Of a stretch of 35,623 bases of DNA, positions 580 to 35,517 are shown piece after piece. Source of the stretch: Candidatus Woesearchaeota archaeon (GTDB lineage Archaea; Nanobdellota; Nanobdellia; SCGC-AAA011-G17; GW2011-AR20); NCBI GenBank assembly GCA_964361505.1, contig CAYIAV010000002.1, positions 1-35,623 of the forward strand, in the 5' to 3' direction. Under the pieces are notes generated by a model. It was not told the DNA's origin. It did no database searches and saw nothing but the letters and a program-made list of their open reading frames with translations. The position numbers and the translations under genes were made by a program. Every line of letters begins with the position of its first letter. Within the stretch, counting starts at the first letter, position 1.

Positions 580-633
580 TGACTTCTTAAAAAACAATAG
601 ATTTATAAATAAAGTAATCACTAGTGATTACAG

Positions 634-840
634 GTGTATATTTTGGAATTAATACTAACCTATCATGCAAAAGTCAGAATGGCAGAAAAAGCAGTAAATA
701 CAGAACAAATCAGGGAAGTAATTAAAAAAGGTGCAAAAATAAAACAAACAGATGGCTTTTTAGCAAGATATGGCTGCATAAAAGTCGCCTACAAGATGAT
801 AAAAGAAAAATACATCATAAAAACAGTGATAATAGAATAA
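634..840 (+). CDS. DUF4258-like toxin of a type II toxin-antitoxin pair
   Basis: 68 aa with a GTG start. The motif LTYHAKVRMAEKAVNTEQIREVI matches the DUF4258 signature (H-A-x-x-R-M-x-E-R-x-I). The stop lies 1 nt before the next ORF. Confidence 0.6.
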   Translation: MYILELILTYHAKVRMAEKAVNTEQIREVIKKGAKIKQTDGFLARYGCIKVAYKMIKEKYIIKTVIIE

Positions 841-841
841 A

Positions 842-1177
842 ATGGAAAAATGCTACATATGTGAAGAAGGAAGACTTGTAAGTAAAAAAGTAGATTTCAA
901 AATGTATGGTAAGGCTATAGGAAAGTTCGACGCCTTAGCGTGTGATAAATGTAGTGAAATATTCTTTGACGAAAGTGCTTCAGAAAAAATAGATAAGGCA
1001 GTAAAAGAAAAAGGTTTATGGGGATTAGAAGCTACAACATCAGTAACACAAGCAGGAAATTCTCTGGCAATAAGAATACCGAAAAGGATAGCGAAGTTTC
1101 TAAACCTTAAAAAAGGCACACAGACAAGGATGCGCCCAGAAGAAAATAAGTTAATAGTGGAAAGTGTAGAAGAATAG
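842..1177 (+). CDS. antitoxin-like protein: MqsA/YgiT-type zinc ribbon fused to an AbrB/SpoVT (MazE-like) domain
   Basis: The CxxC...CxxC motif (CYICEEG...CDKCSE) matches the YgiT zinc finger. The C-terminal SLAIRIPKRIAKFLNLKKGTQTRMRPEENKLIVE is a swapped-hairpin AbrB-type motif. The ORF is tightly coupled to 634-840. Confidence 0.6.
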   Translation: MEKCYICEEGRLVSKKVDFKMYGKAIGKFDALACDKCSEIFFDESASEKIDKAVKEKGLWGLEATTSVTQAGNSLAIRIPKRIAKFLNLKKGTQTRMRPEENKLIVESVEE

Positions 1178-2584
1178 CTATTTTTTATATTTACTAATGA
1201 TCTCGAAAATCTTTTTGCCATCAACCTTTCCCCTATATTTCTTCATTAAAATCCCCATAATGGCATTTGGATTTAATTCTTTATTATAACTAATTATTTT
1301 TTTAATCTCTATCTCAATTTCTTTATCTGAAATTTTCTTAAAAGAGCTAAAATCAATAGTTTCTCCTTTAGAATGAGCAACTAATATATCAACAATTGCG
1401 TTTTTAGATATTTTGCCGTTATTTAAATTCTCTAAAACTTTTTCTAAGGATTCACTTTTAGGATCAATATTAAACCTGGTTTTAATCTCCTTAGGAATCT
1501 CCAATATAACATCAGCGATTACTTTTGGCTCTAAATTTTTATATTTTTTAGATAAACTATCTAAATCTAAATTATTCTCTAAAACTTCCTGAGCAACAGT
1601 TTTCCTTAAGTTAAATTTTTTCTCTAATTTTAAAATTTTCTCACTAATTAACTCAGACAAAACAATTTTCTTTAATTTATCTTTAGAAATTAAGATAGAA
1701 GGATGATCCGTTTCTGGATACATGCGTGACGCTCCAGGCATGGGTCTTAAAAACGAAGTAGTATTATCTACATTTACTTTTCTTACTTCTCCTTTCAATG
1801 GTTTCTCTTTTAATTGTCTTTCAATTTCCTTTTCAATAACAACAGGTATGCTTCTTAAATCTTGAAAGCCTTTTAATTCAATTCTCGGAAAATTCTTAAT
1901 TGATAAATTAATATCTTCCCTAATAGTACCAATACCACGCAATACTTTTCCAGTTGATCTTAAAATCATACCAATTGTAGAAGCTACCTCCTTAGCATGT
2001 CCCTCATCTCGAATATCAGGAGTTGTAGCAATTTCTATTAAAGGAACCCCTAGTCTATCTAATCTATATGTAACAGAATCTTCATTTTCATTAATCTTCT
2101 TAGCAGCCTCTTCCTCCAAGCATATTGTGGCGATTCCAACTTTTCCTTGAGTAGTCTCAATAAAACCATCAATGGCTATTAACATTGTCCTTTGAAATCC
2201 TGAAACATTTGAACCATCAACAACAACTTTTCTCATTACATGAATTTCATCAACAACTTGGGCATTTAGCAATAAAGAAACTTCAAAAGCTGCATTTAAT
2301 GCATCTTCATTAATTCCATGGATAGGTTCACAATCAAGATCTACCAAACAATCACAATCATTGTAAGATTCATAAATAAATTCTTTATTTTTACTCTGTT
2401 CAAACTTAGCAGCTTCATCAATTTTACCCATTTCGCCCATGGAAGCTCTTAATCTTCTTTTAACAATAAAGTCCGGCTCTTCTGTTTTATTTGTAATAAC
2501 GGGACATGAACAAAATAATTTCTTCCCAAAGAGCTGTTGGTGAATCTCCAGACCGCATTTAAAATTTAATTTTTTATAATCCAT
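1178..2584 (-). CDS. gatE: Glu-tRNA(Gln) amidotransferase subunit E (GatE type), compact 468-aa form
   Basis: Motifs GLEIHQQL, KLFCSCP, RGIGTIREDINLSI, RPMPGASRMYPETD and a GatB/YqeY-like tail. These are GatE-type rather than GatB-type motifs. It is shorter than the usual ~620 aa and no gatD is adjacent. Confidence 0.8.
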   Translation of the reverse strand: MDYKKLNFKCGLEIHQQLFGKKLFCSCPVITNKTEEPDFIVKRRLRASMGEMGKIDEAAKFEQSKNKEFIYESYNDCDCLVDLDCEPIHGINEDALNAAFEVSLLLNAQVVDEIHVMRKVVVDGSNVSGFQRTMLIAIDGFIETTQGKVGIATICLEEEAAKKINENEDSVTYRLDRLGVPLIEIATTPDIRDEGHAKEVASTIGMILRSTGKVLRGIGTIREDINLSIKNFPRIELKGFQDLRSIPVVIEKEIERQLKEKPLKGEVRKVNVDNTTSFLRPMPGASRMYPETDHPSILISKDKLKKIVLSELISEKILKLEKKFNLRKTVAQEVLENNLDLDSLSKKYKNLEPKVIADVILEIPKEIKTRFNIDPKSESLEKVLENLNNGKISKNAIVDILVAHSKGETIDFSSFKKISDKEIEIEIKKIISYNKELNPNAIMGILMKKYRGKVDGKKIFEIISKYKK

Positions 2585-2892: not shown

Positions 2893-3915
2893 ATGATAGA
2901 AATTCAGGGCAATATCCATGAAGGCGGAGGCTCTATAGTCCGTTTATCTTGCGCTTTATCCGCTTTAACTCAAAAACCAGTAAAAATCACAAAAATAAGA
3001 GAAAATAGAGAGAGAAAAGGATTAATGGAGCAACATTATCAAAGTATAAAATCCTTAGCAAGATTGTGCAACGCAGAAACAAAAGGTGTTGAGTTAGGTA
3101 GCAGAGAATTAGAATTCATTCCTCATGAAATAACAAAAAAACAGTTAAATGTTGAAATAAGAACAGCAGGCAGTACTTGTTTAGTCTTGCAATCTTTAAT
3201 GCTTCCCTCTTTGTTTCTAAAACATAATATGCAAATAAGAATTGAAGGTGGTGCAACTTTCAATGAAAAAGCTCCAAATATTTTCTATTTCACAGATGTT
3301 TTATTTCCAATTTTAAGGAAGTTAGGATTTAATTTAAATTTAGATGTAATAAAGCACGGCTTCTATCCAAGGGGAGGAGCAGACTTAATTTTCAGATCTA
3401 AACCATTTACTAAACTAAACAATCTTTATTTAGATATGCCCAGTGAACTAAATAAAATAACTGGTATTTCAGTTGCAACTTCAGAATTGAAAAAAGCAAA
3501 AGTAGCAGAGCGTCAATCTTTAAGTGCTGAAAAAATTTTATCAAATAATTTTGACTGTCCTGTAAATATTAGGATAATGTACGTAAATTCACTAAGCCCT
3601 AGCTCTGGAATATTGCTAAAAGCTCATTATCCTGATTACATTTTAGCTGGAGATGCTTTAGGTGCAAAAGGAAAATACAGTGAAAAGGTTGGAGAAGAAG
3701 CTGCAACAAATTTATTAAAGCAAATAATACCAAAAGCAACAGTAGACGAACATCTTGCTGATCAATTAATTCCTTATCTAGCATTAACAGAAGAATCAAT
3801 AATAAAAGTCCCAAGAATAACAGACCATCTAAAGACAAATATTCATATAGTTGAAAAATTTATAAATTGTAAAATTAAAGTAAAGGGAAAGATAATTGAA
3901 ATAAAAAAGATTTAA
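2893..3915 (+). CDS. rtcA: RNA 3'-terminal phosphate cyclase
   Basis: EGGGSIVRLSCALSALTQKPVKITKIRENRERKGLMEQH matches the RtcA N-terminal signature. Length is 340 aa. Confidence 0.85.
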   Translation: MIEIQGNIHEGGGSIVRLSCALSALTQKPVKITKIRENRERKGLMEQHYQSIKSLARLCNAETKGVELGSRELEFIPHEITKKQLNVEIRTAGSTCLVLQSLMLPSLFLKHNMQIRIEGGATFNEKAPNIFYFTDVLFPILRKLGFNLNLDVIKHGFYPRGGADLIFRSKPFTKLNNLYLDMPSELNKITGISVATSELKKAKVAERQSLSAEKILSNNFDCPVNIRIMYVNSLSPSSGILLKAHYPDYILAGDALGAKGKYSEKVGEEAATNLLKQIIPKATVDEHLADQLIPYLALTEESIIKVPRITDHLKTNIHIVEKFINCKIKVKGKIIEIKKI

Positions 3916-3939: not shown

Positions 3940-4509
3940 ATGATACTTAGACCATGTTCTTATGATCTTGCAACAGCAGTTAGAAGGCTTGAAGAAGATC
4001 CAAGAATTGCATTTGAATTGACAAGAAGAACAGTCCCTCTCCCAGGAGAAGCAAATCATGAAGATTGGCCAGTAATAACTACATTAGATATGTGGGGTCC
4101 AAAAAGAAGCTATGCCGAACAAAATCCAAAGGGAGATGGTTACAAAGGACCAATATGGAAAAGTGATGTTAGATTATCTTCAAGGTTTAGAACAGTTGAT
4201 AAAATTTTTGACCATATAATAGATCATACTCTAGGAATGCCACATTATGGGGACATAGGGGATGTGGATGGAGAGTTAATATTAAGATATGACTTTCCAG
4301 TAGACCTACAACCAGATAATCAACCAGCACCTGCACCACACATAGTATACCTTAAACTTAGTGAAAGGAAAGGTCGTCATAGTAGAAATTTTGGAAGCAT
4401 TGGAGATTTAAGAAATAAAATACTTATAACCCCTGAGCTTTACCTTCCTTTTTATCAAACATCACCTGAAGAAATTGCACTTGCAAGAGCTGAATTAGCA
4501 AAAACATAA
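3940..4509 (+). CDS. hypothetical protein with atypical composition
   Basis: 189-aa ORF rich in Pro/Arg/Gly/His/Trp and visibly more GC-rich than its neighbours. No family recognised. Confidence 0.55.
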   Translation: MILRPCSYDLATAVRRLEEDPRIAFELTRRTVPLPGEANHEDWPVITTLDMWGPKRSYAEQNPKGDGYKGPIWKSDVRLSSRFRTVDKIFDHIIDHTLGMPHYGDIGDVDGELILRYDFPVDLQPDNQPAPAPHIVYLKLSERKGRHSRNFGSIGDLRNKILITPELYLPFYQTSPEEIALARAELAKT

Positions 4510-4514
4510 TTCTA

Positions 4515-5240
4515 ATGACACTCCAAGAAATAGCTGAAGACATTAAAGGAAAAAGAAGCTTATCAGACATTGATGATGATTTTCTAAAAGCTAGAATATT
4601 AGAAAAGATAGACAAATACAAAATAGATATTAATGAGGATTTTAAAAAATTAAAAAGAAAAGATCGTTATCAGCAGTTCTTCAAGGAAGTAAGGAAACAA
4701 TTAAGAAAAGTTTACGGAGTTTATCGCGAATTGGCAGAACCCAGGCCAAAATCAGCTTACAAAGAAATTCTTAAAAAAATCGGAAATTTTAGCTCTTTAC
4801 TAGACATAGGCTGTGGAAAATCTCCTTTAGAATACATTGAAATATTCGGAAAAGACAAAACATATTACTCATGTGATATTTCTAAAGAGTGTATAGAAGA
4901 AATTGATTCCTACAAGAAAAAAAATAAAGTCAGAGGCAAAACTTTCATGTTTAATGCATATGACAATTATAAGGAAAATTTGCCTAAAGCAGATGTAACA
5001 TTTCTATTTAGAGTTTTAGAAAGCTTGGAAACATTAAAAAAAGGTTCAAGTGAGAAATTGTTTAAAAACTTAAATTCTAAAACAATCTTAGTTAGTTTCT
5101 CAAAAATAGCATTAGGTCATAATGAAGAAATAAAGAAAAAGGGAAGGTCTTGGTTTAGAAGAATGCTAAGTAGAAACAATTACACATTTGAGGACTTTGA
5201 TATAGAAGATGAAATATTCTTCTTAATTAAAACCAAATAA
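4515..5240 (+). CDS. ArmA/Rmt (FmrO)-family 16S rRNA methyltransferase homolog
   Basis: KEVRKQLRKVYGVY resembles the family motif K-x-V-R-x-x-L-H-x-I-Y-G-A-Y. LDIGCGKSPL is the SAM loop (compare LDxxCGxNPL). ADVTFLFRVLESLE and VSFSKIALGHNEEIKKKGRSWF compare with SFPxxSLxGxxKGMxxxYxxWF. The C-terminal DEIFFLIK also fits. Confidence 0.6.
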   Translation: MTLQEIAEDIKGKRSLSDIDDDFLKARILEKIDKYKIDINEDFKKLKRKDRYQQFFKEVRKQLRKVYGVYRELAEPRPKSAYKEILKKIGNFSSLLDIGCGKSPLEYIEIFGKDKTYYSCDISKECIEEIDSYKKKNKVRGKTFMFNAYDNYKENLPKADVTFLFRVLESLETLKKGSSEKLFKNLNSKTILVSFSKIALGHNEEIKKKGRSWFRRMLSRNNYTFEDFDIEDEIFFLIKTK

Positions 5241-5277
5241 AAACCTTTAAAAGAACTTTTAATCTCATCTAAATTAA

Positions 5278-5440
5278 GCCGCGATCGCATAACCTGGTAT
5301 TGCGCAGATTAACAGCGTAGGATTGCTAAGGTTATAAGCAACCACAGAGATCCTGTTTCCTCACGGATATCTGGGTTCAAAGCACTCTCATGAGAAACGC
5401 TGTAAAGCTTTGTGTGAGTGGGAGAGTCCCAGTCGCGGCG
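5278..5440 (+). tRNA. tRNA-Ser(GCU) gene with three introns (163 nt gene, 84 nt mature)
   Basis: Acceptor GCCGCGA/TCGCGGC with G73. D-arm GCAT-AACCTGGTA-TTGC. After removing 5308-5320 (13 nt, position 29/30) and 5329-5349 (21 nt, 37/38), the anticodon arm is CAGGA-TTGCTAA-TCCTG. There is a 15-nt variable arm (TCC/GGA stem). T-arm is CTGGG-TTCAAAT-CCCAG after removing 5382-5426 (45 nt, 59/60). Each intron has a 4-position central helix flanked by two 3-nt bulges. Confidence 0.8.
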
Positions 5441-5451
5441 ATTTTTAAAAA

Positions 5452-5913
5452 ATGGAATATCACAAACCAGTAGAATTCAAGCATTATCCCGCAACAAGCG
5501 AGAGAGGAGAAGCAAAATTAACAATCGCAGTAGGTCCAGTAATAATAGAACAAGGTAAAGTCCTGCTAGACAAACATGGAGAAGATAAATTCTGGAAATT
5601 CCCAGGAGGAAAGTACATTGATACTTTTAGCTTCATTGATAACGCAAGAAGAGAAGCAAAAGAAGAGCTTGGAATTGAGATAAGGATTTTGGGTGAACCA
5701 TTCATCTACCAGTTTGAAAGAAATCATGATGGCATTCCAGAATATGTTATACTAGTGCATTATTACGCAAAGAGAATGGTAATAGAAAAAATAAAACCTG
5801 GAAGAGATGTAAGGGAATATGAATGGTTTGAGATAGAAAATCTACCAGAAAATTGCGCACCAAATATAGCACCAGCAGTCAGGCACTTCAAAAAAGTACT
5901 AAAAGGTAAATGA
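5452..5913 (+). CDS. NUDIX hydrolase
   Basis: Nudix box GGKYIDTFSFIDNARREAKEELGIE (GX5EX7REUXEEXGU). Confidence 0.8.
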   Translation: MEYHKPVEFKHYPATSERGEAKLTIAVGPVIIEQGKVLLDKHGEDKFWKFPGGKYIDTFSFIDNARREAKEELGIEIRILGEPFIYQFERNHDGIPEYVILVHYYAKRMVIEKIKPGRDVREYEWFEIENLPENCAPNIAPAVRHFKKVLKGK

Positions 5914-6575
5914 AAGAAATTCTCACAAAAGACAACAGCATAACTTTTTTCAACAAAGAATTTAAAGAAAACCTACATCCGGAATCGGGTGCAATAGCAA
6001 GCGTTTACAATAGATACATTAACCATTTAAAATTAAAAAATAACATAAAAGTTCTAGATATTGGTTTTGGTATAGGCTACATTTCTTTAATAATTTTAAG
6101 CAAAGTAAATGCAGATATTACAGCACTAGAAAAAAACAAAGAATACACAGAAGTGATGAAAAACTTAAATTTGCCAGATACTCTAAACGAATATCACAAA
6201 AAATTAAAAAGAATAAATATTATCATAGGAGATGCAAATAAAACTATAAAAAAAGTAAATAAGAATTTTGATTTAATAATATTAGATGGTTTTTCTCCAA
6301 TAAAAAATAAAGAATTATACTCAATTAATTTCTTAAAAGAATTAAAAAAGAGAATGAATAAAGATTCAACATTAATAACATATTCCAGCAATCCCTTAGT
6401 AAGGCATAATTTAATGGAAGCAGGATTTAAATTGAAAAAATACAGAATCAGCAAATATGAAGAAGGCACAATAGCCTCTTTTACTGAAGGAAACCTAACA
6501 GAAAAAGATAAAAAATTAATAAGAGCCTTCAACTTACCTATACAAAATTCCGGTAAAGAAGTTAATCTGGTCTAG
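5910..6575 (+). CDS. MnmC-like SAM-dependent methyltransferase (DUF752 type)
   Basis: VLDIGFGIGY is the SAM loop. ILDGFSPIKNKELYSINFLKELKKRMNKDSTLITYSS matches the MnmC methyltransferase-domain signature (DGFxPxKNPxLW...TY). Confidence 0.6.
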   Translation: MKEILTKDNSITFFNKEFKENLHPESGAIASVYNRYINHLKLKNNIKVLDIGFGIGYISLIILSKVNADITALEKNKEYTEVMKNLNLPDTLNEYHKKLKRINIIIGDANKTIKKVNKNFDLIILDGFSPIKNKELYSINFLKELKKRMNKDSTLITYSSNPLVRHNLMEAGFKLKKYRISKYEEGTIASFTEGNLTEKDKKLIRAFNLPIQNSGKEVNLV

Positions 6576-9456: not shown

Positions 9457-10185
9457 ATGGCATTATTTTTGATTGGCTTAGGACTGGATAAAGATGATAT
9501 TTCTTTAAAAGCAATTAATATACTGAAAACATGCAATAAAATTTACTTAGAACTATACACTTCTATTGGGGTTTCAAAAGAGTATTTAGAAAAATTATTA
9601 AAAAAAGATATAGAATCAAAAGACAGGATATTCTTTGAGAATAAAAGTAAAAAAATAATTCTAGAAGCAAAGAAAGAGAATGTAGCTCTGTTAATTCAAG
9701 GAGATTGTTTAAGCGCAACAACGCACATATCAATACTGCAAGAAGCAATGGAAAGTAATGTAAAAACAGAAATAGTTCATGGAATTTCAATATTCACGGC
9801 AATAAGTGAAACAGGACTAAGTTTGTACAATTTTGGAAAAACAACAAGCATTCCATTTGATTATAAAAACATAAAAACACCATATGAAGCAGTAAATTCT
9901 AACTTAGAAAAAAACATGCACACTTTAGTTCTGCTAGACTTAAATCCGAAAGAAAACAAATTCTTAACTGCAAGTGAAGGGTTAAAGTATTTAGTATCTC
10001 TTGGCTTGGATGATAAAAAAGAAGCAATTATATGTTCAAAACTAGGAACAAAAGGTAAAGAAATAAAAAAAGGTAAAATAAAAGATTTAATAAAGATAAA
10101 GCTTAAAGAATTCCCTCAATGTATAATAATTCCAGGAAAAATGCATTTTATGGAAGAGGAATATACTAGGATATGGAAGATATAA
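9457..10185 (+). CDS. dph5: diphthine synthase
   Basis: MALFLIGLGLDKDDISLKAINILKTCNKIYLELYTS matches the Dph5 N-terminus (tetrapyrrole-methylase fold). Confidence 0.85.
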   Translation: MALFLIGLGLDKDDISLKAINILKTCNKIYLELYTSIGVSKEYLEKLLKKDIESKDRIFFENKSKKIILEAKKENVALLIQGDCLSATTHISILQEAMESNVKTEIVHGISIFTAISETGLSLYNFGKTTSIPFDYKNIKTPYEAVNSNLEKNMHTLVLLDLNPKENKFLTASEGLKYLVSLGLDDKKEAIICSKLGTKGKEIKKGKIKDLIKIKLKEFPQCIIIPGKMHFMEEEYTRIWKI

Positions 10186-20039: not shown

Positions 20040-20171
20040 GGGGCTTACTTCCATTGCCGGTATGGGACTTCAAAAAGAAGCATAAAGCTATAGGCTAATG
20101 GTTAGGCTCACAGGTTTGGGTCTAAAAGAGCAAAAAACCTGTTGATCCAGGTTCGAATCCTGGTAGCCCCA
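20040..20171 (+). tRNA. tRNA-Pro(UGG) gene with a canonical intron and an acceptor-stem interruption
   Basis: The 3' acceptor TAGCCCC + A73 pairs with GGGGCT (20040-20045) + A20090, which are separated by 44 nt. D-arm GGCT-AATGGTTA-GGCT. After removing 20121-20136 (16 nt, 37/38), the anticodon arm is ACAGG-TTTGGGA-CCTGT, with a perfect central helix TTTG/CAAA and 3-nt bulges. T-arm CCAGG-TTCGAAT-CCTGG. Mature length is 72 nt. Confidence 0.7.
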
Positions 20172-25409: not shown

Positions 25410-25682
25410 GTGCAGACTAGATTGGCGGGCTAGCCCCTCGTTGTAACTGCAAACGGGCTTCATGGTAGGATCGAATCTTGGAGAGAGGTATATGCATTCA
25501 TGTAAACCTCAGCCGTACTGATGATCCTCTGTCCTGTTCGGTCGGCATAGTAAGGAACTGAGTCAGGGTAGGAATACAGCAGCTCTAACTTGTTATATCG
25601 GCGCTTACAGGGAAGCAGAGAGTAGGAAAAGCTGGGATCATTTGCATGAACTGTATATATCCATCTCCAGGAGTGTCTGCAA
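25410..25682 (+). ncRNA. ffs: signal recognition particle RNA (7S/SRP RNA); ends approximate
   Basis: GC-rich structured island. The terminal helix pairs TGCAGAC (25411-25417) with GTCTGCA (25675-25681). A helix-8-like motif GTCAGGGTAGGAATACAGCAGC (25562-25583) has a GGAA tetraloop. An Alu-like GGCGGGCTAGCCCC lies near the 5' end. Confidence 0.75.
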
Positions 25683-30512: not shown

Positions 30513-31538
30513 CTATTTAAGCTTTTCTAAAACCCATATCTCTCTTTTAATCCAAGAATCTTTTAAGTCATAAACAATAGGATTCTGAGCCTCTTCAAAT
30601 ACTGTAGCTCTAAACCCAATGTCTTGAATTAAAGAATCAAAATCCATGCCTACATTTTTTCCAAAAGCCTTGATTATAGGCACAATAACAATAACTTTCC
30701 CTTCAACAATTTTATTAGCCTCCGATAAAAATTGAAAATACATTTTTTGCAATTTCTTCATAACTCTATAAGCCTCTTTCTGAGAAGGAGTCTTTTTCCA
30801 ATAAGGTCCTAAATAAGGCTCAGTAACAATAGCCTCAACTTTATTAAAATAAGTGCTTAATTTCTTAGAGTCCCCTTTAACTAGTTTAAACTTATTTTTA
30901 AATAAAAATTCTTTTTTTGCCCATTGAATATTATGCTGCACTTCATAAATAGTCTTGTCAACTCCTAAGACATTAAGTCCGCTAAGCAAGCCTTCCTGTA
31001 ATATTGTTCCACAACCACAAAAAGGGTCTAAGATTTCTTTTCTGGCTTGGCTTAAATTTATCAAGATTTTAGCGAGTCTTATTGAAATAACTTTTTTTTC
31101 ATCGAATGCCGGTCTATTCTCATCTCTTGTCTTATACTTCTTAGGATTTGAAACAGAAAAAATGCGAAAAAGAGTTTTACCAGCTTCGATAACTTCTAGA
31201 TCAAAATACGTAGGTTTATTGATGTATTTTCTAAAAATTCCTTTAATTCCCTCTTTTTTAAAAAATTGTTTTAAAACCTCTTTATTTTTTTCATTTCCAA
31301 AAAAAGAATAAGTAACAACATTCTCGCCAAATTTCAATTGATCAATAGCAAATTCCTTTCCAATTTTAACTATGCCACCAAAAGCATCAGCAGTAAAAGC
31401 AAAAGAATTAATGTCCAATATTAAAAATTCATCATTAAACATAATAAAGTTATAATTAACAGTTCTAGCTTGAAGAAAACTAATTACCTCAAGCACAGCC
31501 AATTCCTTATCTCTTCCCAAAACAAAAATGTATTTCAT
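30513..31538 (-). CDS. putative RNA (guanine-N2 / Trm11- or Trm14-like, UPF0020) methyltransferase
   Basis: SAM motif ILDPFCGCGTILQEG and catalytic-type motif VTEPYLG (an NPPY variant). The N-terminal domain is THUMP-like in size. 4-nt overlap with the upstream gene. Confidence 0.6.
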   Translation of the reverse strand: MKYIFVLGRDKELAVLEVISFLQARTVNYNFIMFNDEFLILDINSFAFTADAFGGIVKIGKEFAIDQLKFGENVVTYSFFGNEKNKEVLKQFFKKEGIKGIFRKYINKPTYFDLEVIEAGKTLFRIFSVSNPKKYKTRDENRPAFDEKKVISIRLAKILINLSQARKEILDPFCGCGTILQEGLLSGLNVLGVDKTIYEVQHNIQWAKKEFLFKNKFKLVKGDSKKLSTYFNKVEAIVTEPYLGPYWKKTPSQKEAYRVMKKLQKMYFQFLSEANKIVEGKVIVIVPIIKAFGKNVGMDFDSLIQDIGFRATVFEEAQNPIVYDLKDSWIKREIWVLEKLK

Positions 31539-32401
31539 AATTTAAGCTCATCAGAACAATAACCATTAAAAGTTATCTGGCAAGTTTTACAGCAAATAAA
31601 CAATTTATCACAATCAATATTCTTGCAATTTACATACAAATCACTAAAAGATTCGCAAATTTCACACTTAGAAATGGGATGAACTTCTTTAGAATTATCT
31701 AAAGAAATAGCCATTCTCCTGTCAAAAACAAAGCATTTTCCTCCCCAGTGAGCATCAGAGCATTTATCAGAATAGTTCAATATTCCTCCATCTAATTGAA
31801 AAACATTGTTAAATCCATTTTCCATTAAAAAAGCAGAAGCCTTCTCACATCTAACTCCCCCAGTGCAATAAGTAACTATCATTTTATCTTTTAAAGACCT
31901 TAAAGAATTTATCTTACTTTTAAACTCAGTAAATTTTTTTATGTCTAGGTCTATAGCTCCTGAAAATTTCCCAATCTTAGTTTCATAATTATTTCTAACA
32001 TCTAACAAGATTACATCTTCTTTTTCATCAAGAATTTTCTTCAGTTGTTTTGGTTCTATTTTCCTGGCAGCTTTAGAATAATCCACATTAGTATCAAAGG
32101 TTACAATCTCTTTTCTAACTCTCACAAACATCTTTCTATAAGCTTCATCTCCAACAAGTGTCTCTCTAAACTGAATATCCCTAAATTCTTTACAAGATAT
32201 CAATTTTTTCTTATAACTGTCTACATTAATATTTTTACCAGTAATCCCTCCATTAATGCCTTCTTTAGAAACCAAAATCTTCCCCTTTAATCCTAAACTC
32301 TTGCAAAAAGAAAGATGTTCTTTTGCAAAAGATTCTGGATCATCAATAGTTGTATATTTGTAAAAAGTGGTAACTTTCATAAAATCAAAGAATAATGACA
32401 A
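31535..32401 (-). CDS. trhO: rhodanese-domain protein of the TrhO/YceA (UPF0176) family, tRNA U34 hydroxylase-like
   Basis: FYKYTTIDDPESF..., GKILVSKEGINGGITG, the rhodanese loop YCTGGVRCEKASAFL and a C-terminal Cys cluster. Confidence 0.75.
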   Translation of the reverse strand: MSLFFDFMKVTTFYKYTTIDDPESFAKEHLSFCKSLGLKGKILVSKEGINGGITGKNINVDSYKKKLISCKEFRDIQFRETLVGDEAYRKMFVRVRKEIVTFDTNVDYSKAARKIEPKQLKKILDEKEDVILLDVRNNYETKIGKFSGAIDLDIKKFTEFKSKINSLRSLKDKMIVTYCTGGVRCEKASAFLMENGFNNVFQLDGGILNYSDKCSDAHWGGKCFVFDRRMAISLDNSKEVHPISKCEICESFSDLYVNCKNIDCDKLFICCKTCQITFNGYCSDELKL

Positions 32402-33361: not shown

Positions 33362-33583
33362 TTATACTATCTTAATTATATTTACAGGGCAATTCAATGA
33401 TACTTTTTTAGCTTCTTCAATATCAACAATCTCTATAAACCTAATAAAAACCTCTTTAACATTTTGAGATTCAATTAAATCAGATTTTCCATCTTTCTCA
33501 GAAATACGCCAGAAATGGGGTGCATATTCTACACAAGCATTACATCCTATACATTTATCTCTATAATAAAGAATTTTTGCCAT
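33362..33583 (-). CDS. small [4Fe-4S] ferredoxin
   Basis: CIGCNACVEYAP ... CPVNII, 73 aa. Overlaps the end of the U32 gene by 23 nt. Confidence 0.75.
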   Translation of the reverse strand: MAKILYYRDKCIGCNACVEYAPHFWRISEKDGKSDLIESQNVKEVFIRFIEIVDIEEAKKVSLNCPVNIIKIV

Positions 33584-34835
33584 TTGCCCTTTGGATTAAT
33601 ATATATAACTTATCTCCTGCTCTAACCTTTATAGGCAAAGGAACAGTAACATCAGTTCCCTTAGATGCAAAAAAAATTTTGTTATCATCCTTATATATAC
33701 TAGAAACACGAGATTCAACAACACCAGTAGTGGGTCCTGTAACCAAAATTTCATCTCCCTCTTTAAGAGATCCGCCATTTAAATTAAAATATGCAACATG
33801 GGATTTCATAAAGTAATTCTTAACCTTACCAACAAGAATCTTTTCCTTAGTTGATTGAGAGCCATAATCACCGCTCCACTCTCCAAGCTTCTTGCCTAAA
33901 TAATAACCGCCCTGCCAAAAACCCCTATTATAAACTGATTCAAGATCTTTAGTCCATCTATCTATCTTTTCTTTATTGTAAGTTCCTAAAAGATAAGAAT
34001 TAATTGCTTCTCTATAAGATTTAACAACAACATGTACATAATCTTCTTTTCTTCCTCTTCCTTCTATTTTTAAAACAGAAACTCCCGCATCTAGTATCTT
34101 GTCTATAAATCCAATAGTGCAAAGATCTTTAGGAGACATTACATATTTGTTGTCAATAACTAACTCGTCTCCTGTTTCTTCATCAATAACTCTATAGGCT
34201 CTTCTGCAATTCTGTAAGCATGCACCCCTATTAGCAGATGCATTGTAAGTTGCCAAGCTCATATAACATTTTCCAGAAATAGCTATACATAAAGCGCCAT
34301 GTACAAAAATCTCAACTTTCACCAAATCTCCTGAAGACCCCCTAATATCATAGCTCTTAATTTCTTCACAAATATTCTTGATTTGTTTCAAGGTTAATTC
34401 TCTAGCTAAAACAACAACATCTGAAAATTGTGCATAAAATTTAACAGATTCTATATTGCTAATATTAACTTGTGTAGAGATATGAACCTTTAGTCCTAAT
34501 GATCGTGCATACTGAATAGCAGCCATATCACTAACAATAACAGCATCAATCTCTGCATTTTTGGCAGCTTTGCATATGTCTTTCATTAGAGAAATATCAT
34601 GATCATAAAGCACAGTATTTAGTGTTAAATAAAATTTTACTCCATTTTTTTTGCAAATAGAAGCTATTTTCTTCAAATCCTCTAAAGTAAAATTATTGGC
34701 AGAACATGCTCTCATGTTCAGCTGCTCAACGCCAAAATAAACAGAATCAGTTCCAGCATTTATTGCAGCCATTAAAGACTCATAAGATCCCACAGGTGCC
34801 ATTAGCTCTATAGGTTTAAACATATCAAAAAACAT
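33561..34835 (-). CDS. peptidase U32 family protein (TrhP/RlhA-like RNA hydroxylation factor)
   Basis: ELMAPVGSYESLMAAINAGTDSVYFG, the TIM-barrel-like U32 core, the conserved Cys region (GALCIAISGKCYMS) and EGRGR. Confidence 0.8.
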   Translation of the reverse strand: MFFDMFKPIELMAPVGSYESLMAAINAGTDSVYFGVEQLNMRACSANNFTLEDLKKIASICKKNGVKFYLTLNTVLYDHDISLMKDICKAAKNAEIDAVIVSDMAAIQYARSLGLKVHISTQVNISNIESVKFYAQFSDVVVLARELTLKQIKNICEEIKSYDIRGSSGDLVKVEIFVHGALCIAISGKCYMSLATYNASANRGACLQNCRRAYRVIDEETGDELVIDNKYVMSPKDLCTIGFIDKILDAGVSVLKIEGRGRKEDYVHVVVKSYREAINSYLLGTYNKEKIDRWTKDLESVYNRGFWQGGYYLGKKLGEWSGDYGSQSTKEKILVGKVKNYFMKSHVAYFNLNGGSLKEGDEILVTGPTTGVVESRVSSIYKDDNKIFFASKGTDVTVPLPIKVRAGDKLYILIQRANGKNSLL

Positions 34836-34956: not shown

Positions 34957-35517
34957 TTACGGTCTAGTCCACTTAATTTCGTAGTAAGTACAATCTTCCT
35001 CTGCATCAACTATCCCCAATAGCAATCTCTTCCTTGTGCTATGAGCAACCCTGTTCTTAGCGCTAAACTCATGCCAGGTTAATGTGCTTCCCTCATGAAC
35101 TGGAAATAAAACCCATTTAGCATGATCTTCTCCAGGTTTAATTCCCCTATCATAAACCCTAAAATCGGCCCCAAATTTTAAAGCAGTTTTAACAATATAT
35201 CCTCTGCTCCTCATATCTCTATAAACAAGATACTTCAACCAAATATTGGGCTCAGTTTTCTTAGAACTTTTCAATAAAGCATCAAATTTCAAAGTTTTCT
35301 TGCCATCTTTGACATTCATCTTTCCCTTTTCCACTAAGTACAAAGCCTCAACTAAAGAATAAACTATCTTGCCGTCCTTAGGCTCACCATATCTGCTGGA
35401 ATCATACAATTCTCTAGCACTGCCTTTATCTTGAGCACTAACTTTCTCCATCAAAAACTCAGCTGCAAATTTCCTGACTTTTATCTTTTCTTCTTTAATA
35501 TTATCCTTATCACTCAT
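34957..35517 (-). CDS. endA: tRNA-splicing endonuclease, single-unit (alpha-type) subunit
   Basis: YRDMRSRGYIVKTALKFGADFRVYDRG, HAKWVLFPV and VAHSTRKRLLLGIV correspond to the catalytic Tyr/His/Lys region of archaeal EndA. Length is 186 aa. Confidence 0.85.
   Translation of the reverse strand: MSDKDNIKEEKIKVRKFAAEFLMEKVSAQDKGSARELYDSSRYGEPKDGKIVYSLVEALYLVEKGKMNVKDGKKTLKFDALLKSSKKTEPNIWLKYLVYRDMRSRGYIVKTALKFGADFRVYDRGIKPGEDHAKWVLFPVHEGSTLTWHEFSAKNRVAHSTRKRLLLGIVDAEEDCTYYEIKWTRP

Follow-up and report, generated by a model that had tools for sequence, protein, structure and literature searches.

Transfer RNA genes carrying three introns, as well as introns located at positions 3/4, 29/30 and 59/60, are established for Crenarchaeota (PMC4090602). 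DPANN archaea possessing a splicing endonuclease (EndA) of the alpha4 type display more disrupted tRNA genes, multi-intron genes included (Kaneta et al. 2018, PMC5829648), and a Woesearchaeota genome was among those surveyed (PMC5829648). The longer loop between the catalytic Tyr and His residues of the Nanoarchaeum equitans and ARMAN-2 enzymes is designated L3 (PMC3488258, PMC5829648), and this loop, together with the CSL of (alpha-beta)2 enzymes and the ASL of epsilon2 enzymes, has been linked to the cutting of relaxed splice motifs (PMC5829648, PMC12397907). The EndA of M. jannaschii is described as strict for the canonical bulge-helix-bulge (PMC5829648, PMC4090602). In a literature search of limited extent, no prior description was found of the tRNA-Ser gene family reported here.

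The locus lies in a 35,623-nt stretch of DNA (hereafter the window; G+C about 31%) originating from a low-GC DPANN archaeon (Woesearchaeota) of Hainich groundwater. Positions 5278..5440 of the window very probably constitute a working tRNA-Ser(GCU) gene of this archaeon, interrupted by three protein-spliced introns. An EndA gene is present in the same window.

Materials and Methods

Related serine tRNA genes were searched for by comparing a 23-nt D-arm sequence to contigs, with one genome retained per species. This pattern retrieved 77 stretches, nearly all labelled Woesearchaeota, Nanoarchaeota or Nanoarchaeia, from which 76 distinct Ser genes were obtained, 28 of them intron-less and 81-85 nt in length. 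These labels assign the source organism to the Woesearchaeota group of DPANN archaea. The loci harboring the genes recovered in this way are designated by L-numbers (L001, L060 etc.). Intron positions in the relatives were determined by alignment to intron-less references followed by a structure-aware parser. The splice motif was defined geometrically: a 4-nt segment that stops two nucleotides ahead of the 5' cut pairs with another that stops two nucleotides ahead of the 3' cut, and each cut is placed after the second nucleotide of a 3-nt bulge.

Results and Discussion

Anatomy of the gene and its spliced product

The gene is composed of four exons and three introns, as follows.

5278..5440, plus strand: complete tRNA-Ser(GCU) gene, 163 nt, CCA not encoded
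5278..5307, plus strand: exon 1, tRNA positions 1-29 (acceptor 5' strand, D arm, G26, C27-G29)
5308..5320, plus strand: intron 1, 13 nt, ATTAACAGCGTAG, at 29/30, relaxed, bulge-helix-loop like
5321..5328, plus strand: exon 2, positions 30-37, GATTGCTA, holding the anticodon GCT
5329..5349, plus strand: intron 2, 21 nt, at the canonical 37/38
5350..5381, plus strand: exon 3, positions 38-59 (anticodon stem 3' strand, 15-nt variable arm, T stem 5' strand, T-loop TTCAAA)
5382..5426, plus strand: intron 3, 45 nt, at 59/60 in the T-loop
5427..5440, plus strand: exon 4, positions 60-73 (T60, T stem 3' strand, acceptor 3' strand, G73)

A first-pass annotation had proposed that the 163-nt gene yields an 84-nt class II tRNA-Ser(GCU) upon excision of the segments 5308-5320, 5329-5349 and 5382-5426. 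The segments, their positions and the resulting product are all upheld: their removal restores a canonical cloverleaf, which is identified as tRNA-Ser(gct) by ARAGORN and agrees with the intron-less relatives. The spliced product possesses a 7-bp acceptor stem. Its 15-nt variable arm, anticodon GCT and G73 are those of a class II tRNA-Ser; the anticodon stem CAGGA/TCCTG, the loop TTGCTAA (UUGCUAA in the RNA), the T-loop TTCAAAT and G73, as announced by the same annotation, are likewise all found in it. The 28 intron-less Ser genes of the relatives display the same class II architecture. The product differs from the intron-less gene of L060 by a single nucleotide, located in the variable loop, and the spliced gene of L031 equals the L060 sequence exactly; this comparison provides the strongest support for the proposed structure. 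The L060 gene itself scores 56.5 bits against the Rfam tRNA model, whose gathering score is 29.

The ARAGORN check suggested at first pass succeeded with the spliced form and failed with the unspliced one: no call was obtained on the unspliced region with the intron option enabled, and the two tRNAs reported for the whole window do not include this gene. The Rfam tRNA model gave no match over the same unspliced region even at E<=5. Four independent Hainich assemblies contain the identical 163-nt gene, which is full-length in L001, L002 and L006 and truncated at its 5' end in L005, so that an assembly artefact can be dismissed. The four exons are colinear, on one strand and within 163 nt, so that the gene is neither split nor permuted.

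Splice motifs and choice of junctions

Each intron could be fitted to the geometry defined above, with the following components (^ denotes the cut).

Intron 1, 29/30, plus strand: central helix GCGC/GCGT, 4/4 paired; bulges AG^A and AG^G; inner stem of 1 bp; outer helix interrupted
Intron 2, 37/38, plus strand: central helix TTGC/ACAG, 3/4 paired; bulges TA^A and AG^A; inner stem GGTT/AACC; the anticodon stem as outer helix
Intron 3, 59/60, plus strand: central helix TTCA/GGAG, 3/4 paired; bulges AA^G and AG^T; inner stem CACTC/GAGTG; the T stem as outer helix

The first reading had given every intron a four-position central helix with a 3-nt bulge on the 3' side of each strand. The bulge-helix-bulge geometry does fit all three introns, with two qualifications. 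Full pairing of the central helix is achieved in intron 1 only, introns 2 and 3 containing one mismatch each (C35.A and A57.G, respectively). In addition, the inner stem of intron 1 is reduced to a single T-A pair, so its 5' 'bulge' actually lies inside a 9-nt loop, a relaxed form of the motif. The intron stems GGTT/AACC and CACTC/GAGTG were both retrieved, and the placement of the cuts after the second bulge nucleotide is supported by the register control and by the geometry of the relatives. In that control, taken over all relatives, the true register gives the central helices mean pairings of 3.91, 3.63 and 3.71 out of 4, against 2.65 at most once the 3' side is displaced by 1-5 nt. Shuffled introns equal the observed helix pairing in only 0.1-0.2% of cases per intron, which, along with a spliced product matching intron-less orthologues, excludes chance as the origin of the motifs.

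Of the three junctions, that of intron 3 is the sole unambiguous one. By sequence alone intron 1 could be located at 27/28, 28/29 or 29/30, since removal of 5306-5318 or 5307-5319 gives the same product, and intron 2 at 37/38 or 38/39, removal of 5330-5350 being equivalent. The gene could accordingly be real and cut at the other junctions with an unchanged mature sequence, with a latitude of 2 nt at intron 1 and of 1 nt at intron 2. This is, however, very unlikely: both cuts follow the second bulge nucleotide flanking a 4-bp helix only with 29/30 and 37/38, and the 29/30 junction is unambiguous in L031, L061, L069 and many other relatives. The 29/30 and 37/38 positions were retained on these two grounds.

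The bulge-helix-bulge motifs did not emerge from minimum-free-energy folding, whether this was applied to the whole precursor or to the local arms. With introns 2 and 3, folding favors a register shifted by 2 nt (-22.1 versus -17.6 kcal/mol for intron 3), a shift made possible by the GAGAG repeats found at the 3' ends of both introns. This result was regarded as carrying no information on the motifs rather than as evidence against them, since such calculations penalise 3-nt bulges and the enzyme binds the motif. As a separate observation, the sequence GCACTYTCA at the 5' end of the T-loop intron is common to 5382-5426 of the window and to the 59/60 introns of the distant relatives L010, L054, L065 and L072. 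This sequence is complementary to TGAAAG at the 3' end of the same intron and so vies with the T-loop for that partner; the intron-internal GCACTYTCA/TGAAAG helix is the one preferred by folding.

Introns of the related serine tRNA genes

Fifty related tRNA-Ser(GCU) genes, that of the window included, contain no intron (16 genes), one (10), two (14) or three (10). Their introns occupy the 29/30, 37/38 and 59/60 sites, with one additional case each at 58/59 and 60/61. Three introns arranged as in the window but differing in sequence are present in L064, L070, L031, L061 and L069. The 59/60 site is used by 16 other genes, and 22 others possess a homologous 29/30 intron, 17-39 nt long, with an inner stem of 3-10 bp whose sequence varies. 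The 29/30 inner stems represent 13 distinct sequences, every one of which pairs, and the central-helix partner may be GCGT, GTGT, GTGC, GCAC or ACGT, with 4/4 pairing in 21 of the 23 introns. It is structure rather than sequence that is conserved among the introns of the relatives. The 13-nt intron 1 of the window corresponds to the 17-nt intron of L064 and L070 minus 2 nt on each inner-stem strand; the loss concerns two whole base pairs of this stem, and the register is therefore kept.

Departures from the canonical motif are widespread in this series. None of the 23 introns at 29/30 has a continuous outer helix, and 30 of the 43 introns at 37/38 are devoid of an inner helix, 18 of these 30 being 14 nt or less in length. 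Relaxed motifs are the rule in this Woesearchaeota lineage.

Clearly homologous 29/30 introns (AAACTTTTGG.AAAAGTTTCATCAAAAAG...) were also noticed in L037, L015 and L042, located in the Ser(GCU) gene of one genome and in the Ser(UGA) genes of two others. All Ser isoacceptor genes recovered with the D-arm pattern share one and the same sequence between position 8 and the splice site, and such an identical 5' stretch could allow intron transfer by gene conversion.

Signs of activity

Two elements flank the gene.

5239..5263, plus strand: conserved upstream box, AAAAACCTTTAAAAGAACTTTTAAT / AAAAACCTTTAAAAGAAC, with a TATA-like core CTTTAAAAG at -33 to -25 from G1
5442..5446, plus strand: T5 run directly after G73

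The upstream box also precedes the three-intron orthologues L064, L070, L031, L061 and L069 and the intron-less L017; its position, along with knowledge of archaeal TATA boxes, designates it as a putative promoter. T-rich trailers follow most orthologues as well, and the T5 run is likely a transcription stop. In every assembly that yielded more than one Ser gene, a single GCU gene was found among them. The codons AGT and AGC account for 148 of the 483 Ser codons (31%) in 30 Pfam-supported open reading frames of the window. The promoter box, the T-run, the single-copy pattern and the heavy AGY usage argue, at the level of sequence, for an active tRNA-Ser gene.

The same observations bear on the possibility that the locus is a decaying pseudogene, namely a tRNA-Ser broken by three insertions while a working copy exists elsewhere in the genome. 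Such a copy could lie beyond the 35.6 kb in view, and rejection by the standard tRNA finders as well as three imperfect motifs would also be expected of a decaying gene. The exons are nevertheless intact, with the one variable-loop difference from L060; at least five other species-level genomes retain the arrangement of three introns, their sequence changes leaving the pairing intact; and the conserved promoter box, the common AGY codons and the one GCU gene of related assemblies all speak against decay. A pseudogene is thus highly improbable, and the reading of a working gene is retained. Removal of the inserts by a route other than EndA, through self-splicing or trimming by other nucleases, might be invoked given the resemblance of the window EndA to a narrow-specificity type, but is scarcely credible for inserts of 13, 21 and 45 nt, far below the size of group I or II introns, in a window where no group I or II family was matched, at the tRNA-Ser region or elsewhere, even at E<=5, and where the inserts bear the signature of EndA substrates, a conserved 4-bp helix flanked by 3-nt bulges.

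The splicing endonuclease

The candidate enzyme is encoded near the end of the window.

34957..35517, minus strand: EndA gene, 186 aa, Pfam PF02778 and PF01974

Its catalytic triad is intact (Y122, H132 and K163). The best solved relative is the M. jannaschii EndA (PDB 1a79, E 1.3e-34), with which it is colinear over 158 residues, with one 1-residue gap per side. The protein has the hallmarks of the homotetrameric (alpha4) type: a single polypeptide of about 180 aa, N-terminal and catalytic domains, and the Tyr/His/Lys triad. The acidic L10-type loop reads DAEED in the window EndA and DADGD in M. jannaschii, a feature that is compatible with the alpha4 type but constitutes no proof of it. The N-terminus is extended by some 15 Lys-rich residues relative to the M. 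jannaschii enzyme.

The Tyr and His residues are spaced by 9 residues in the window EndA and in M. jannaschii, versus 15 in N. equitans and 14 in ARMAN-2. All 120 closest EndA homologues display the 9-residue loop DRG[IV]KPGED or a near-identical variant, and the Nanoarchaeum-type (L3) insert is absent from the window EndA and from these 120 homologues. Also lacking in the window EndA are the insertions found in the N-domain of the ARMAN-2 (ASL) and A. pernix (CSL) enzymes. One homologue, P0058, appears to be located on the same 111,214-nt contig as L015, the Ser(UGA) gene with a 29/30 intron.

The window EndA is expected to be the enzyme that cuts all three tRNA-Ser introns. The first-pass annotation had called for an endonuclease tolerant of relaxed motifs: this need is real for the lineage, where such motifs are common, and the EndA actually encoded in the window is devoid of the insertions linked to tolerance. 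Since the literature ties the cutting of relaxed motifs to loops, the window EndA would have another way of achieving it, or a partner encoded outside the window. The broader proposal, held tentatively and with somewhat more doubt than belief, is that a plain, M. jannaschii-like and loop-less Woesearchaeota EndA cuts relaxed motifs (hBH, HBh' and bulge-helix-loop) at 3/4, 29/30, 37/38 and 59/60. If so, broad range in this large lineage would rest on an undescribed determinant, such as the Lys-rich N-terminal extension or other surface residues, or on an unseen partner, and the enzyme would be a major exception to the proposed rule that pairs a specificity loop with disrupted tRNA genes.

Other disrupted and nested tRNA genes

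The window contains a second disrupted tRNA gene.

20064-20171, plus strand: tRNA-Pro(UGG) with two introns
20067-20086, plus strand: tRNA-Pro intron at 3/4 in the acceptor stem, 20 nt
20121-20136, plus strand: tRNA-Pro intron at 37/38, 16 nt, central helix TTTG/CAAA, 4/4 paired

The spliced form is recognised as tRNA-Pro(tgg); ARAGORN miscalls the unspliced gene as Phe(aaa). The central helix of the 3/4 intron, TATG/CATA, is paired 4/4, takes in three bases of the 5' leader and is accompanied by an inner stem CTTC/GAAG. A 44-nt acceptor-stem intron starting at about 20043-20046 was considered as well and rejected for want of a splice motif, that of 20067-20086 being perfect instead.

Several recovered loci show a complete tRNA-Ser gene lying inside another tRNA-Ser gene, both with the same anticodon.

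L014, about 6063-6371, plus strand: nested tRNA-Ser locus (L085 has the same sequence)
L082, minus strand: nested tRNA-Ser locus, inner tRNA at 4171-4257
L084, about 9510-9950, plus strand: nested tRNA-Ser locus
L086, minus strand: nested tRNA-Ser locus

The inner tRNA is part of a 129-131-nt segment in the variable-arm region of the outer gene. This segment is flanked by a conserved canonical splice motif. Three loci have a fully paired (4/4) central helix and the remaining one a 3/4 helix; the inner stem of the motif, 12-15 bp long, is formed by an A-run and a T-run, in which base changes preserve pairing. Once the segment is removed, the outer gene remains interrupted by a hairpin of some 26 nt, and the nested loci offered no convincing candidate for a second splice motif capable of completing maturation of the outer tRNA-Ser. 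The outer gene is otherwise intact in L086; its anticodon loop counts only 6 nt in L082. A related arrangement was seen in L087 (about 620-1000, plus strand), where the 5' two-thirds of a tRNA-Ser gene lie 23 nt upstream of a full tRNA-Ser gene. The full gene carries the same 37/38 intron as the partial copy, and the downstream arm of the nested cases is missing. L087 may be a decayed or half-formed nested arrangement.

Proposed maturation of the tRNA-Ser precursor

Transcription would start from the TATA-like box situated about 30 nt upstream and end at the T-run after G73, giving a 163-nt precursor with archaeal introns at 29/30, 37/38 and 59/60. The 4-nt pairing would place each cut after the second nucleotide of a 3-nt bulge, or within the loop for the 5' site of intron 1, and the EndA encoded in the window would cut both sites of every intron. 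The exons would then be joined by a ligase, presumably of the RtcB type, and leader removal and CCA addition would deliver the finished 84-nt class II tRNA. With three local motifs, the order of cutting is probably free. The motif of intron 2 could form while intron 1 is still unspliced, since TAG, at the end of intron 1, and the exon nucleotides GA are able to pair with TCCTG; the motif of intron 3 would be restricted to the T arm.

Genes related to RNA and tRNA are abundant in the window.

2893-3915, plus strand: RtcA (RNA 3'-phosphate cyclase), 1.3 kb upstream of the tRNA-Ser gene
25410-25682, plus strand: archaeal SRP RNA, 126.7 bits
29311-29385, plus strand: intron-less tRNA-Met(CAU)
1178-2584, minus strand: RNA/tRNA-related gene
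5910-6575, plus strand: RNA/tRNA-related gene
30513-31538, minus strand: RNA/tRNA-related gene
31535-32401, minus strand: RNA/tRNA-related gene
33561-34835, minus strand: RNA/tRNA-related gene

The last five include a GatB/E-type amidotransferase subunit, an MnmC-like methyltransferase domain, an RMKL-like methyltransferase, a UPF0176/rhodanese protein and a U32 peptidase-family protein, whose gene adjoins that of EndA. Within the 35.6-kb window RtcA was seen and no RtcB ligase.

Significance and comparison with known systems

The gene is invisible to ARAGORN and Rfam, and Woesearchaeota genomes would for this reason seem to be missing tRNA-Ser(GCU) and, on the same reasoning, further tRNAs. 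Such missed genes distort estimates of genome completeness as well as claims that codons have been reassigned. The 50 related genes, with zero to three introns at fixed sites, form a natural series for the study of intron gain and precise loss, in which homologous 29/30 introns are visible in different Ser isoacceptor genes. The window furthermore pairs the substrates with their enzyme, a loop-less EndA facing mostly relaxed motifs, and this pairing bears on the model of how archaeal endonucleases gained their broad range. The tRNA itself is of modest interest; the question of the enzyme is the more interesting part.

Multi-intron tRNA genes are already known, and the tRNA-Ser(GCU) described here is a well-supported further case. 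It shares with the multi-intron tRNA genes of Thermoproteales/Crenarchaeota (Sugahara et al. 2007, 2008; reviewed in PMC4090602) the presence of up to three protein-spliced introns per gene, the relaxed hBH and HBh' motifs and the failure of standard tRNA finders to detect the genes. [quoted passage not shown] The 'few archaeal lineages' to which triple-intron genes had been ascribed at first pass should consequently be extended to DPANN/Woesearchaeota, as already hinted in PMC5829648.

Nanoarchaeum equitans, ARMAN-2 and the surveyed DPANN genomes (PMC5829648) belong to the same superphylum and likewise possess disrupted tRNA genes. The trait was tied there to the L3 (Nanoarchaeum/ARMAN-2) loop, whereas the window EndA is without this insert. 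The tRNA-Ser(GCU) described here involves no split or permuted gene. With the alpha4 EndA of M. jannaschii, the window enzyme has in common its colinear sequence, the catalytic Tyr/His/Lys residues and the acidic L10-type loop; the M. jannaschii enzyme is nevertheless described as strict, while the substrates of the window lineage are mostly relaxed.
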